Under the pieces are notes generated by a model. It was not told where the DNA came from. It did not search any database and saw only the letters and a program-made list of their open reading frames with translations. DNA of 64,000 nt, from the NCBI GenBank assembly GCA_025352125.1, contig JANXTZ010000028.1:15922-79921 (forward strand), written 5' to 3'. Positions within the stretch are counted from its first letter, which is position 1. Each line of letters begins with the position of its first letter. Positions 30,289-60,697 of this stretch are shown here, piece by piece. Source of the DNA: Deinococcales bacterium (GTDB lineage Bacteria; Deinococcota; Deinococci; Deinococcales; JAAFIG01). Both the position numbers and the translations under genes were made by a program.

Positions 30289-30388
30289 CAGGACGCAGCA
30301 AGCTTCTTGACTGTAAAACGCACCTTCTTGGTTTCAAAACGCACCCAACGGGCGAAACCGCTAACGGGCATGGTCGCAGCGTCCCTAC
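30289..30388 (-). mobile_element. GTAG-type REP hairpin interrupted by a 37-nt mini-element that carries a second 37-nt mini-element
   Basis: Inner copy 30324-30360; outer copy 30303-30323 plus 30361-30376. Removing both restores GTAG-GGACGCAGC-TT-GCTGCGTCC. Confidence 0.75.
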
Positions 30389-32046
30389 GATTTTTTAATT
30401 TGGTTGCGGATGGCTTTCAACCGTTTCATGGCATCGTTCGCGCCGCGACCAAAATAATCGTGCAGGGTCTTGTACTCGGCGTACAGGGAATCGTAAATGC
30501 GGGAATGCTCGAGGTTGGGCTTAAAGGCGCTTTTGATGGATTTGCCCATGACGCTGGCGGCAGCATAAATATCTGGGTAGACGCCTGCGGCAACGGCGGC
30601 ATGAATAGCGCTACCCAGCGCAGGACCTTGACTCGAGGCTGCCACGCTCAGTTCTCGTCCGGTCACGTCGGCGTAAATTTGCAAAAGCATTTTGTTTTTG
30701 ATCAAGCCGCCCGCGATCACCAGTTCTTTGACCGGAACGCCGGAGGCTTCAAAAGCTTCAATGATCGTGCGCGTGCCGTAAGCCGTGCTTTCGATCAAGG
30801 CGCGGTAAATATCGGGTGCTCGAGTCGCCAGGGTCATGCCGATCATCATGCCGCTCAGTTCGGTGTCCACGAGCACGCTGCGGTTGCCGTTCCACCAATC
30901 GAGCGCGATCAGACCGTGCTCGCCTGGGACTTGTGTTTGCGCAAGGCTGGTCAGGTGGGCGTGAATGTCCATGCCTGATTCTCGAGCCGCAACATGGTAT
31001 TCAGGCGGGACGCCGTGTTTGACAAACCAGCCAAAAATATCACCGACGCCGCTTTGCCCCGCCTCGTAACCGAACATGCCTGGACTGACGCCGCCGTCAA
31101 CCACGCCGCACATGCCTGGAACTTCGGCGAGGGTTGCGCCGTTCATGATGTGACAGGTGCTTGTGCCCATAATCAAAACCATCTGACCTGGTTGCACGGC
31201 GTTGGCTGCAGGCACGGCAACGTGCGCGTCCACGTTCGCCACCGCCACCGCAATGCCTGGTGTCAAACCAGTCCAAGCCGCAGCTTGAGCACTCAAACCA
31301 CCAACTCGAGCGCCCAGAGCGTCAAGCTTTTTTGAGAGTTTTTCTTGCGCGAAATCTGCAAAACCAGGATTGAGTGCGCCCAAAAATTCGCGGCTGGGAT
31401 ACTGACCATCCTGAAAATTGGCTTTGTAACCGGCGGTGCAGGTGTTGCAAGTCTCAACGTTTGAGAGCTGCCAGATCACCCAATCGGCAGCCTCGAGAAT
31501 TCGGTCTGCCGCCGCGTAAATCTCTGGGGCTTCCTCGAGAATTTGCAATGCTTTGGCGAGCATCCATTCGCTCGAGATTTTCCCGCCGTAACGCGGCATC
31601 CAAGCTTCATTTCTGGCTCTGGCAAGCGCGTTGATTCGGTCGGCGTGGGGCTGCGCGGCGTGGTGCTTCCAGAGTTTGACATACGCGTGAGGATTGTTGC
31701 GGTGTTTGGACAGAAAACACAGTGGCGTGCCATCGGCGTTGACGGGCATTACGGTACATGCCGTGAAATCAATCCCAATGCCGATCACATCTCGAGCATC
31801 AATCCCAGCGTTTTTGACGGCTTGGGGAATCGTGTGTTTGAACACCTCGAGATAATCCTGCGGGTCTTGCAGTGCCCATTCTGGAGGCAGTTTTGCGCCG
31901 CTCGAGAACAGGCTGTCGTCCATGACGCCGTGAGGATAATCAAAGACCGCGCTCCCCAATTCTGCGCCATCACTGACGCGCACGACCACGGCACGCCCCG
32001 AGAGCGTGCCGAAATCAACCCCAATTGTATGACGTTCATTTGACAT
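30385..32046 (-). CDS. araB: Ribulokinase
   Basis: GVDFGTLSGRA, IGIDFTACT, YVKLWKHHAAQ, YGGKISSEW, MGTSTCH, YEAGQSGVGD and LDWWNGNRS motifs. Confidence 0.96.
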   Translation of the reverse strand: MSNERHTIGVDFGTLSGRAVVVRVSDGAELGSAVFDYPHGVMDDSLFSSGAKLPPEWALQDPQDYLEVFKHTIPQAVKNAGIDARDVIGIGIDFTACTVMPVNADGTPLCFLSKHRNNPHAYVKLWKHHAAQPHADRINALARARNEAWMPRYGGKISSEWMLAKALQILEEAPEIYAAADRILEAADWVIWQLSNVETCNTCTAGYKANFQDGQYPSREFLGALNPGFADFAQEKLSKKLDALGARVGGLSAQAAAWTGLTPGIAVAVANVDAHVAVPAANAVQPGQMVLIMGTSTCHIMNGATLAEVPGMCGVVDGGVSPGMFGYEAGQSGVGDIFGWFVKHGVPPEYHVAARESGMDIHAHLTSLAQTQVPGEHGLIALDWWNGNRSVLVDTELSGMMIGMTLATRAPDIYRALIESTAYGTRTIIEAFEASGVPVKELVIAGGLIKNKMLLQIYADVTGRELSVAASSQGPALGSAIHAAVAAGVYPDIYAAASVMGKSIKSAFKPNLEHSRIYDSLYAEYKTLHDYFGRGANDAMKRLKAIRNQIKKS

Positions 32047-32075
32047 GGCTCTATCCTAACGGAAATGCTCGAGCA

Positions 32076-32273
32076 TCAATGCGCAACCGTAATGGTGGTG
32101 AATGACATTGGCGGCAGACTGATGGTCACTCGAGCGTCAACAATACTGACATTTGAGAGTGCCTGAGAGACAACATTGTTGGGGTTTTCAAAACTGTTGG
32201 CGGCTTTGGGATCGGTGCCAGTGACTTGCCACGCGCCAGTCACGGTGCTTGCTGGTGTACCCTGCCAAGAAAT
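32076..32273 (-). pseudogene. 3' remnant of GH51 alpha-L-arabinofuranosidase
   Basis: VTGTDPKAANSFENPNNV...VTISLPPMSFTTI matches the GH51 C-terminal beta-sandwich end; stop 30 nt before araB; catalytic domain absent. Confidence 0.7.
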
Positions 32274-59075: not shown

Positions 59076-60577
59076 ACCGTGCTCCCGTGCAACTCGAGCC
59101 AGGTGGTTTTGAGTTGCGTGTACTCCTCGAAGGCGTGAAGGCTCTTGTCGCGTCCAAAACCTGATTGCTTGTAACCACCGAACGGCGCGTTGACGCTGGT
59201 GTGGTCAAAAGCGTTGATCCAAACCGTGCCAGCCCGCAGCCGCTTGGCGGCAAGATGCGCCTGGTTGATGTCGTTGCTCCAGATCGCCGCCGCCAGCCCG
59301 TACTCGCTGTCATTCGCAATCTGAATCGCTTCCTCGAGCGTGTCAAATTCGATGCAGACCAGCACCGGTCCAAAAATTTCTTCGCGAGCGACCCGCATGT
59401 TGTTGGTGACATTCTCGAGGACGGTGGGTTGAATAAACACCCCACCAGATTCTTGCAAGACTTGCGCCCCGCCAATCGCCACACTCGCGCCCTCTTGTTG
59501 CCCCAGCGCAATGTACTCGAGCACCCGTGAACAATGCTCAGGAGAAATCAACGCCCCCATTTCGGTGCTCGGGTCGAGCGGATCGCCTGGTTTGAGGCGT
59601 TCCGCCCAAGGTTTCAACAGCGCCATAAACTCATCGCGCAAACCACGCTCCAAGAGCAACCTCGAGCCAGCATTGCAACTCTCGCCTTGGTTGTACCAGA
59701 TTGCGTAAGCCACGTACATTGCGGCTTTCTCGAGGTCAGCATTGCGCGTGACAATGTGCGGACTTTTACCGCCAAGCTCGAGTCCGATGCGTTTGATGTT
59801 GGATTTGGCGCTGTACTCGAGAAATTTCCTGCCGACCTCAGTGCTGCCTGTGAACACGATCACGTCCACGTCTGGGTGCATTCCGAGTGCCTGCCCAGCA
59901 ATGTGCCCAAGTCCCGTCACGACGTTCAACACGCCATCAGGAATGCCCGCCTCTTTTGCCAGTGCCGCCAGTTTCAACGCCGAGAGCGAGCTTTGCTCCG
60001 CAGGTTTTAAGACCACACTGTTGCCCGCCGCCAGTGCAGGTCCAAGTTTCCAAGCCGTGATAATCAACGGATAATTCCAGGGCACAACCGCGCCCACCAC
60101 CCCTATCGCCTCTCGAGACACCATCACCAAACTCGAGTTTCCGTTCGGTGCAATCTCGTCGTACATCTTGTCAATGCACTCCGCGTACCATTGAATGGTA
60201 TTCGCACACGAACTCGCGTCCACATTGACGCTTTCCTTGATCGGCTTGCCCGTGTCCAGCGTCTCGAGCAACGCCAATTCTGCCAGATTTTCGCGCATCA
60301 AATTTGCCCAGTTCAGCATGATGCGTTTGCGTTCCGTCGGTTTTAAATCCCGCCAAACACCGCTCTCAAACGCCGCTCGAGCCGCCCTGACCGCCACATC
60401 CACATCCGCAGCATCACACGCCGCAATCTGCGCCAAATGTTTGCCCGTCGCTGGGTTGATGCGTTCAAACGTGCCCCCAGAAATTGCATCCACAAAATGC
60501 CCGTCAATAAAAGCTCGAGTCTCGAGTTTGATGTCTTTTGCGTACTGCTGCCAGTTTGTATCCGTGATGATGTTCAA
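59072..60577 (-). CDS. Aldehyde dehydrogenase, PuuC-like
   Basis: VPWNYP, FTGSTEVG, LELGGKSP, YNQGESCNAGSR and EEIFGPV motifs; TTG start at 60577 after CAGGAG. Confidence 0.92.
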   Translation of the reverse strand: MNIITDTNWQQYAKDIKLETRAFIDGHFVDAISGGTFERINPATGKHLAQIAACDAADVDVAVRAARAAFESGVWRDLKPTERKRIMLNWANLMRENLAELALLETLDTGKPIKESVNVDASSCANTIQWYAECIDKMYDEIAPNGNSSLVMVSREAIGVVGAVVPWNYPLIITAWKLGPALAAGNSVVLKPAEQSSLSALKLAALAKEAGIPDGVLNVVTGLGHIAGQALGMHPDVDVIVFTGSTEVGRKFLEYSAKSNIKRIGLELGGKSPHIVTRNADLEKAAMYVAYAIWYNQGESCNAGSRLLLERGLRDEFMALLKPWAERLKPGDPLDPSTEMGALISPEHCSRVLEYIALGQQEGASVAIGGAQVLQESGGVFIQPTVLENVTNNMRVAREEIFGPVLVCIEFDTLEEAIQIANDSEYGLAAAIWSNDINQAHLAAKRLRAGTVWINAFDHTSVNAPFGGYKQSGFGRDKSLHAFEEYTQLKTTWLELHGSTV

Positions 60578-60616
60578 AATAATCTCCTGAATTTTAGATT
60601 TCTGTTTTTTGTTTTT

Positions 60617-60697
60617 CTCCCTTCTCCTGATGTTGGGAGAAGCGACCATGCCCGAAGGTGCATTTTATGGTCAAGAGAGGGTCGGGGATGAGGGTAG
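60617..60697 (+). mobile_element. REP-like palindrome carrying a 37-nt mini-element (60643-60679)
   Basis: CTCCCTTCTCCTGATGTTGGGAGAAG[CGACCATGCCCGAAGGTGCATTTTATGGTCAAGAGAG]GGTCGGGGATGAGGGTAG. Confidence 0.8.

Follow-up and report, generated by a model that had tools for sequence, protein, structure and literature searches.

A hairpin of about 37 nucleotides as a probable mobile insertion unit in an uncultured family of Deinococcales

A 64,000-nucleotide stretch of a Deinococcales genome (GenBank assembly GCA_025352125.1, contig JANXTZ010000028.1, positions 15,922 to 79,921 of the forward strand; hereafter the window) contains several copies of a hairpin of about 37 nucleotides (nt), here called the mini-element, lodged within other short repeats. 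We are highly confident that the mini-element is a discrete mobile insertion unit. Nested copies resolve when the inner one is excised, each window copy has empty orthologous sites, and in two genes, murI and an addB-like gene, copies have been gained stepwise among sister species. An initial annotation, made from the window alone, had proposed an ultra-small non-autonomous mobile hairpin, and that proposal is borne out. The best overall explanation, to which we assign a probability of roughly 0.6, is a lineage-specific, non-autonomous family of single hairpins that would move as single-stranded DNA (ssDNA) with the aid of a HUH-type enzyme acting in trans.

The assembly holding the window, referred to below as G000, comprises 84 contigs (4.53 Mb, 52.6% G+C, 92.5% complete), and the window copies between positions 30303 and 60697 map to its contig C34. 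Copies were counted in two ways. Firstly, a grammar of the mini-element was run over G000 in rounds, each copy found being excised before the next search. Secondly, a covariance model (CM) was trained on 21 copies. The CM count in G000 is a floor, 150 of 3,789 candidates having been scored, and the counts for 16 high-copy genomes of the same family are likewise lower bounds resting on a limited number of scored candidates. Insertions in genes were assessed by in silico excision, after which reading frames across the junction were sought and checked against Pfam. Four DNA runs of one study, and no listed RNA run, also contain the stretch, all as contigs, and are possibly the source of the G000 assembly; the run contigs terminate at the repeats.

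All six copies reported in the initial annotation were recovered in the window, with AG before five of them, TG before the outer copy of a nested pair, and AG at the end of the intact copies. They are given below with the repeats that host them, which are of two kinds: a hairpin repeat that we call REP-H, and a repetitive extragenic palindrome (REP) of the GTAG type.

60643-60679, plus strand: intact 37-nt mini-element with a GACCAT/ATGGTC outer stem, a 3-nt loop and a 7-nt tail, following GAAG in the 3' arm of REP-H (REP-H site 1); CM match at C34:76564-76600, 43.9 bits.
60617-60697, plus strand: host REP-H, a hairpin with a stem of ~10 base pairs (bp) and then a GGTYGGGGATGAGGGT tail, split by the element into 60617-60642 and 60680-60697.
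57706-57744, minus strand: intact 39-nt mini-element with a 6-nt spacer and a 7-nt tail, following GATGAG in REP-H site 2; CM match at C34:73627-73665, 41.2 bits.
57700-57785, minus strand: host REP-H, split by the element into 57745-57785 and 57700-57705.
32491-32527, minus strand: intact 37-nt mini-element with a GATGCT/GGCATC stem, after GAAG; CM match at C34:48412-48448, 53.8 bits.
32465-32490, minus strand: truncated tandem mini-element, comprising the first 26 nt of the subfamily of the preceding copy and abutting its 3' end; the 3' arm and tail are lost.
30324-30360, minus strand: inner 37-nt mini-element with a GGTTTC/GAAACC stem, after TTAG in the loop of the outer copy; CM match at C34:46245-46281, 52.1 bits.
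30303-30376, minus strand: outer mini-element of the GACCAT type, with some mutations in its 3' arm and its two parts at 30361-30376 and 30303-30323; it follows CTG within the loop of a GTAG-type REP.
30289-30388, minus strand: host GTAG-type REP hairpin with its GTAG head at 30385-30388, split into 30377-30388 and 30289-30302.

A pattern describing the core of the element matched five times in the window against 1.34 matches expected, a number reached by none of 100 shuffles, and the core together with the tail matched 78 times in G000 against 0 for the reversed pattern. No Rfam 15 family matched at its gathering score anywhere in the window, mini-element and REP-H included.

The comparison of filled with empty sites, which the initial annotation had named as a check, provides evidence of mobility: all four window loci have empty orthologous sites within the genus. 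At the nested pair (30303-30376), the GTAG-type REP is uninterrupted in G005, G004 and G001. The outer copy is common to G000 and G002, and the inner copy in G002 belongs to a different subfamily; the same loop has therefore been hit a second time, independently, in two species. The site at 60643 is empty in G005 and G003, and the same host repeat in G001 carries two other insertions. The site at 57706 is empty in G001.

Stepwise gain is recorded in two protein-coding genes. The glutamate racemase gene murI (Asp_Glu_race domain) is empty in G003, G005 and all other genera examined, and holds one 36-nt copy in G002. G000 has that copy with a 39-nt copy nested in its loop, while G004 has the G000-type nested pair and two further tandem 36-nt copies, the MurI proteins of these sister species being lengthened by 12, 25 or 49 residues. 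In the addB-like gene, the loop of a GTGG-type REP within a genus-specific linker is occupied by a GACCAT-type unit in two genomes, G000 and G002, and in G005 by one of the GATTCC type; the linker of G004 has neither the GTGG REP nor the mini-element. Two loops have received different second insertions in different species. The addB-like linker is absent from other genera and has accumulated a GTGG REP, a REP-H-like hairpin and a mini-element, all in frame, and in G002 some 230 more nt, also in frame.

The element is abundant in G000, where the grammar yielded 133 copies with 117 distinct sequences: 114 in the first round, a further 17 once inner copies had been removed and two more at a third level. 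Removal of the inner unit alone restores a complete outer unit in 19 cases, and two triple nests occur (C16:12943-13056 and C25:58400-58516). The CM, which also served to look for further copies as the initial annotation had envisaged, gave at least 144 matches in G000 and was positive in each of the 18 further genomes that share its GTDB family and span five genera. Sixteen of these have at least 45-164 matches each, G011 has 13 and G015 has one. Among the four sister families of the order, matches were found in 0 of 6, 0 of 6, 1 of 5 (a single match, E = 2e-4) and 0 of 5 genomes. When the nested signature was sought in ~185,000 species genomes, nearly all of the matches listed were annotated 'MAG: Deinococcales bacterium' (MAG, metagenome-assembled genome); the matches listed also included about a dozen singletons in high-GC genomes, which rest on the pattern only and are close in number to the roughly five chance matches estimated. 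Seven exact pattern matches in viral contigs can be ascribed to chance, as none of the seven passed the CM. The mini-element family thus has a long and persistent history within one uncultured lineage, to which it is confined.

Insertion follows a simple target rule. Among 130 unique flanks, G stands at position -1 in 126 and A at -2 in 108, and AG precedes 105 copies against a background of 4.9% of G000 dinucleotides, in agreement with the AG/CT core named in the initial annotation. The +1 position is G in 69 flanks and C in 37. The orientation of insertion is fixed relative to the target motif, and the AG before the element is target DNA, already there in empty orthologues. Two junctions illustrate the event: CTG|CTTG becomes CTG, unit, CTTG, and GAAG|GGTC becomes GAAG, unit, GGTC. 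Judged from the CTG|CTTG empty site, the target duplication is at most 1 nt (G). Longer duplications were considered and rejected. A 2-nt duplication is ruled out by the same site and by a copy flanked by GG in the insA gene of an IS1 element, and a 3-nt duplication by the occurrence of AAGAAG tails at GAG (11), TAG (11) and CAG (5) targets as well. The last 3 nt of the element do partly match the 3 nt that precede it (AAGACAG at CAG in 8 of 16 cases, AAGAAG at AAG in 44 of 87).

In most cases the target G belongs to the loop or the 3' arm of some other hairpin, and several classes of host can be told apart. The largest of those counted is the mini-element itself: 31 of 133 copies sit in its own loop, between the loop-closing G and GTGC. 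A further 19 occupy two fixed sites in REP-H, and 16 of the 176 GTAG-type REPs in G000 (9%) hold a mini-element. In REP loops the element is seen pointing either way with respect to the GTAG head, following AG on one strand and TG on the other. Elsewhere, copies follow CTCGAG, stand between tRNA genes, interrupt transposase genes of IS1 and IS200, or sit within housekeeping genes without breaking the frame. The initial annotation had the element landing at AG/CT within REP palindromes; the dinucleotide rule holds, and REP loops are only one target class among several. REP-H consists of a hairpin with a covarying stem of ~10 bp (CCCTTCTCC...GGGAGAAGGG) and then a conserved GGTYGGGGATGAGGGT tail, with at least 68 copies in G000. 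The word GGGGATGA stands in the full REP-H context (hairpin arms and GGTY) in 68 of its 128 genome occurrences, most such copies being uninterrupted. REP-H also occurs in frame within the addB-like gene.

The CTCGAG word has a distribution of its own. It occurs 28,215 times in G000 against 1,218 expected from base composition, a 23-fold excess or about one per 160 bp (in the window, for example, at 30274-30279), far above any other 6-nt palindrome in the assembly. GGGCCC (4 occurrences), AGGCCT (7), GAGCTC (9) and CGGCCG (14) are nearly absent against 1,200-1,500 expected. The pattern resembles that of HIP1-type hyper-iterated palindromes, combined with strong avoidance of restriction sites.

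A target site within the mini-element's own loop and another at the end of its tail account both for nesting, up to three deep, and for tandem arrays. Insertion leaves intact the AG that precedes a resident copy, and the tail supplies an AG at its end; further hits therefore yield arrays without spacers, as in G009, where four identical units follow CTCGAG. Should the unit move as ssDNA, such identical arrays could stem from rolling-circle copying of a 37-nt circle. Among pairs of copies at most 150 nt apart, 41 of 42 share a strand (21 of them nested, 2 abutting, 18 separated by 1-150 nt) and one is on opposite strands; two further opposite-strand pairs lie 151-500 nt apart, and each of the 22 multi-copy clusters is confined to one strand. 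The regular alternation of repeat and spacer that typifies CRISPR arrays is absent, copies being dispersed, nested or abutting without spacers. In one region of G000 (C5:1118-5754; loci L007 and L009), at least 17 tRNA genes lie on one strand with mini-elements in their spacers, mostly antisense and including one nested pair.

In the grammar copies from G000, the mini-element is 35-42 nt long and most commonly 37 nt. From 5' to 3' it starts with CG as its head, followed by an arm of 6-7 nt whose sequence is free, an inner hairpin, a spacer, the complementary arm and a purine tail. The inner hairpin reads GCCC, a 3-4-nt loop, and GG-T-GC with a bulged T; the loop mostly ends in A (GNNA or GAA type), 3 of 121 parsed loops ending in G and 1 in C. 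The unpaired spacer on the 3' side is T-rich and 5-6 nt long, and the tail is AAGAAG or AAGANAG. Of the 37-nt hairpin, about 13 nt form an invariant core and 7 nt the tail, and inner hairpin, head and tail are conserved across the five genera beside an outer stem that is free. At least 20 different left arms were seen, GACCAT being the most frequent (41 of 133). The covariation of the outer stem noted in the initial annotation is well supported: across 21 copies, five of six pairs show compensatory changes and 96% of cells are paired, none of 500 shuffles scored as well, and shifting the partners abolished the signal. Covariation had also been suggested for the inner bulged stem, through an exchange of T-A for C-G beside the core. 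This suggestion has partial support: the proposed pair can form in 14 of 21 copies and a competing outer-stem pair in 17 of 21, and the four inner pairs themselves are invariant in the alignment. The spacer was considered as a possible 'guide' for the tail or target. The 7-nt tail accompanies a 5-nt spacer in 7 of 115 copies and a 6-nt spacer in 19 of 45. No consistent base-pairing rule emerged, lineage hitch-hiking explains the association equally well, and it was dropped as evidence.

Might such copies accumulate with no dedicated enzyme, the polymerase switching templates (copy choice) or stalled hairpins undergoing short-patch gene conversion, with G/AG microhomology used at both switches? 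Junctions share only G or AG, the target hairpins could stall replication, and tandem arrays of identical units exist, such as the four copies in G009. The 42-nt GC clusters of yeast mitochondria are also flanked by AG and have no known enzyme (PMC4478555). A microhomology of 1-2 nt would not, however, give exact and oriented boundaries in more than 100 copies per genome. The conserved inner hairpin, head and tail beside a free outer stem suggest sequence-specific recognition, and restriction to one bacterial family suggests a lineage-specific factor. We consider this explanation improbable.

The same anatomy bears on movement as double-stranded DNA, either as a miniature inverted-repeat transposon (MITE) mobilized by a DDE transposase, or through a recombinase of the IS110 type, which would use a CT core in the way that IS621 recombines in REPs. 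The stem arms are readable as 6-bp terminal inverted repeats, IS110-family elements are known to target REPs (PMC12288879), and G000 contains a multicopy IS1-family element. However, DDE-type MITEs have conserved terminal inverted repeats and a fixed target duplication, and the mini-element has neither: its supposed inverted repeats covary freely, unlike transposase binding sites, and its duplication is at most 1 nt. No IS110 DEDD domain was found in G000 at its 92.5% completeness. The IS1 copies are victims rather than donors, one bearing a 38-nt copy in insA and a 36-nt copy in insB. Moreover, a 37-bp duplex cannot bend to synapse its own ends. A double-stranded route is accordingly very unlikely. 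The IS1-family element itself lies at C4 (~8000-9700) and at the contig ends of C18, C19, C20, C65, C34 and C84. Its 38-nt insA copy separates the two halves of a zinc finger, and removal restores the frame; the C4 copy also carries the in-frame 36-nt insB insertion.

Insertions within Pfam-verified genes are listed below.

addB-like gene (G000 C63:109358-112150; orthologues L190, L193 and L194): 36 nt added at amino acids 546-558, sense.
recQ: 72 nt added after the HRDC domain, sense.
murI: 75 nt added within the racemase domain, antisense.
Ferredoxin-domain gene: 39 nt added at amino acids 202-215.
GAF-PAS histidine kinase gene: 39 nt added at amino acids 96-109.
RNase R frame: 114 nt added, possibly upstream of the true start.
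IS1 insB: 36 nt added within the open reading frame (ORF).

The added lengths are all multiples of three, as against about 45% of copies overall, and selection has therefore filtered insertions in genes. Frame-breaking copies are found where loss is tolerable: a 38-nt copy in IS1-family insA (in all copies seen), a 37-nt copy near the C-terminus of an amylase gene, and 36- and 38-nt copies, antisense, in the IS200-type tnpA of G017 (C401:8645-9054, locus L176), a gene that also contains TGA stops. Such a pattern speaks against the copies being removed from the RNA or bypassed by the ribosome. For the 38-nt insA copy, translational bypass was considered specifically and rejected, as the repeated TTCG words would put the ribosome in the wrong frame.

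An RNA route was also considered, in which the hairpin would be transcribed, reverse-transcribed and integrated. The bulged hairpin with its GNNA/GNRA-type loops would fold as RNA too, and many copies lie in transcribed spacers, such as those of the tRNA array or downstream of genes. Copies nevertheless occur in both orientations relative to host genes (sense in addB-like and recQ, antisense in murI and the tRNA array), and the window has no match to an Rfam family. The reverse transcriptase domain RVT_1 occurs in only 5 of 18 family genomes and was found neither in G000 nor in the single-contig G011. We give this route the slightest chance of those considered.

We favour, on balance, a mechanism based on ssDNA and HUH-type chemistry. 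This rests on two arguments: a 37-bp duplex is too short to present its two ends to a double-strand transposase, and the anatomy of the element matches the chemistry of IS200/IS605 and TnpA-REP. The points of likeness, as those systems are described (PMC8266576, in part), are an irregular hairpin bearing a bulged T, cutting at either end 3' of a short motif, the lack of a duplication and targets in loops. With G or AG at both junctions, the events can equally be read as insertion 3' of CT on the other strand, CT being the dinucleotide cut by TnpA-REP. In the proposed scheme, the mini-element would travel as ssDNA, with a cut 3' of (A)G at either end, and would be joined to an (A)G site exposed in single-stranded DNA. 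The outcome itself is observed: a complete unit stands in one orientation directly 3' of G (AG in four of five cases). The enzyme would be a HUH-type tyrosine nuclease or transposase acting in trans, the likeliest candidate being a paralogue resembling the REP-associated tyrosine transposase (RAYT) and encoded beside GTAG REPs.

Several observations make a RAYT paralogue our first-ranked, if tentative, candidate. RAYT-like genes were detected in 16 of 18 family genomes, each of which has 1-7 matches, and G015, which has no RAYT match, also has just one mini-element copy. The family model that the RAYT-like proteins match best, that of the REP-associated tyrosine transposase, scores 66-75 bits, short of its 80-bit cut-off, and their translations have an H-x-H motif and a C-terminal WQR-x-[FY]-[YHW], the aromatic residue of which we take to be the position of the catalytic tyrosine. 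In some paralogues the HUH and tyrosine motifs are separated by long inserts of low complexity. In G000, with 176 GTAG-type REPs, a classical REP-RAYT system is therefore present, the REPs coexisting with RAYT-like paralogues at C54:97905-98465, C18:10073-10315 and C76:140952-141059. A GTAG-type REP lies directly upstream of the RAYT gene in 6 of 15 loci displayed; it is filled by a mini-element in G004, G014, G016 and G009 and empty in G013 and G008. In a comparison made across genomes, with 9% of GTAG REPs filled in G000, this hints at action near the gene. Of 23 RAYT loci, five hold a copy at E <1e-10, four in the upstream GTAG REP and the fifth ~900 nt away. The initial annotation had named a trans-acting HUH or IS110-type enzyme. 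RAYT-like HUH genes beside element-bearing GTAG REPs make the former the better candidate, and the IS110 alternative gains nothing from G000, in which no DEDD domain was found.

Single-stranded cutting and joining might instead be performed by an enzyme other than RAYT, either an IS200/IS605-type TnpA in trans or an undescribed site-specific ssDNA nuclease, for example of the GIY-YIG Ssn kind, with a ligase. The link to RAYT is circumstantial. Fifteen of the 18 family genomes have Y1_Tnp matches, as a rule in a single IS200-like gene of ~150 amino acids, and a family of site-specific ssDNA nucleases acting on bacterial repeats has been described (PMC11893778, in part). The IS200-type genes, however, differ between genomes, have unrelated end hairpins of their own and are not flanked by the mini-element. 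None was found in G008 (at least 109 copies, 91% complete), G006 or G015, and the tnpA gene is broken by two mini-elements in G017 and by a TGA stop in the best G000 copy. From searches that covered IS200-type TnpA, we consider a non-RAYT enzyme unlikely, although less so than the routes weighed above. IS200-type tnpA was also examined as the source of the hairpin itself and rejected, 22 loci showing no systematic association and the genes not being orthologous between genomes. A Y1 transposase fragment at C60:1-900 of G000 opens a short AT-rich contig of 4.4 kb that looks compositionally foreign to the bin and may represent contamination.

A number of observations weigh against a RAYT-driven ssDNA unit and should be set beside the evidence above. 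Firstly, the distribution of enzyme and element is imperfectly matched: of the 22 genomes from sister families without the mini-element, 6 have RAYT homologues too, and G017 (84% complete) has at least 85 copies and no RAYT match. Secondly, the initial annotation had suggested looking for the same hairpin beside a RAYT, IS200/IS605 or IS110 gene; CM scans of 22 Y1 and 23 RAYT loci found no gene flanked by the mini-element. G000 is without a REPtron-like layout, and no nuclease gene lies between inverted copies there. The four filled REPs beside RAYT genes are not independent, as those of G014 and G009 look orthologous. Thirdly, the published guide rule, whereby GTAG selects CT, does not carry over, the element being without a GTAG head or a fixed CT on the hairpin strand. 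The predicted stability as ssDNA is modest (-4.8 to -5.7 kcal/mol, z -0.9 to -2.6), and top and bottom strands are predicted to fold equally well; the structural case therefore rests on covariation. Lastly, a bias towards the lagging-strand template, as judged by local GC skew, is not apparent: 42 copies were counted against 49 over the 84 contigs, where the median absolute skew is only 0.011, and 15 against 7 where skew exceeds 0.02 (p = 0.13), skew being weak in G000. No evidence of excision, circles or polymorphism within the population came from the contigs, which break at the repeats.

Comparison with known systems places the mini-element near, and outside, several of them. It resembles REPs and REPINs (REP doublets) with their RAYT enzymes in being a hairpin of 20-40 nt, in hundreds of copies, restricted to a lineage and apparently persisting vertically. 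Its head is CG, without the GTAG/GTGG or CGTC tetranucleotide of REPs, and its hairpin is two-tiered, with an invariant inner part and a free outer stem. The 8-9-bp stem starting with AT and the CCA tail, given as features of CGTC REPs in passages of PMC3733652, do not fit it. Parts of the same source report REPs inside other palindromes and inside coding regions, repair genes included, and TnpA-REP is described as cutting ssDNA at a CT or CA dinucleotide 5' or 3' of the hairpin (PMC8266576, in part). In contrast to REPINs, inverted doublets are lacking, as the 41 same-strand neighbour pairs among 42 indicate, and in contrast to REPtrons, the repeat flanking the gene is the GTAG REP, the mini-element directly flanking no RAYT gene. 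The mini-element thus fits neither the GTAG nor the CGTC class of REP and is not organised as REPINs. We know of no demonstration that REP singlets have inserted, nested or been arrayed as single units.

IS200/IS605 elements and palindrome-associated transposable elements (PATEs), which are at least ~100 nt long, offer a second comparison. Likenesses include oriented insertion 3' of a short sequence, lack of duplication, a cleavage-like motif at the 3' end and an extrahelical T, the IS200/IS605-type mechanism being that described in parts of PMC8266576. Those elements, however, have distinct left and right subterminal hairpins and tetra- or pentanucleotide targets, whereas the mini-element has one hairpin and targets only G or AG, and no tnpA has mini-element ends. 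Rickettsia palindromic elements (RPEs), of about 100-150 bp, offer a third. They too are palindromes found in frame in protein genes (cited in PMC3733652), but belong partly to the CGTC class of REP and to another phylum, and the passages of that source that deal with them report neither self-nesting nor an AG rule.

The closest behavioural analogue appears to be the GC clusters of yeast mitochondria (GC42), which are hairpins of ~42 nt with AG on both sides, presence/absence variation, merging and an unknown enzyme (PMC4478555, in part). The likeness is one of behaviour only, these clusters being organellar, eukaryotic and unrelated in sequence. Their AG is read in that source as a 2-nt target duplication, as against at most 1 nt for the mini-element at CTG|CTTG. 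Full-text searches of the literature, supplements and subscription journals lying outside them, returned no description of the mini-element family or of self-nesting elements of REP size.

There is as yet no settled account of how REP-sized palindromes spread; according to the prevailing view, REPIN doublets replicate and singlets are relics, and clean insertions are rare. The mini-element ranks with the smallest repeats of bacteria for which insertion as a discrete unit has been shown, and its events are unambiguous: an exact unit at an exact site, empty orthologues within the genus, and second and third hits in the loop of the first. This clean record makes the mechanism directly testable, and places a lower bound on transposable size at a 37-nt hairpin. 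We would go further only with considerable reserve, and regard it as possible rather than probable that these are the smallest bacterial transposable units so far, each a single hairpin of 36-40 nt excised and pasted as ssDNA by a domesticated RAYT-type HUH enzyme or by one of a class that has yet to be linked to repeats. Were this true, the family would offer, for the first time in nature, a record of the long-debated spread of REP-sized singlets that is legible one event at a time, and that spread could be rebuilt in vitro with two oligonucleotides and one protein. A HUH enzyme with an AG-in-loop target would also be of interest for ssDNA insertion tools.

Two consequences hold for the genomes themselves. 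In assembly practice, mini-element repeats break contigs and give false long ORFs in MAG annotation. For the proteins of this family, they show that small repeats are able to remodel their hosts, as in the successive extensions of MurI and in the addB-like linker, to which three kinds of repeat have contributed.

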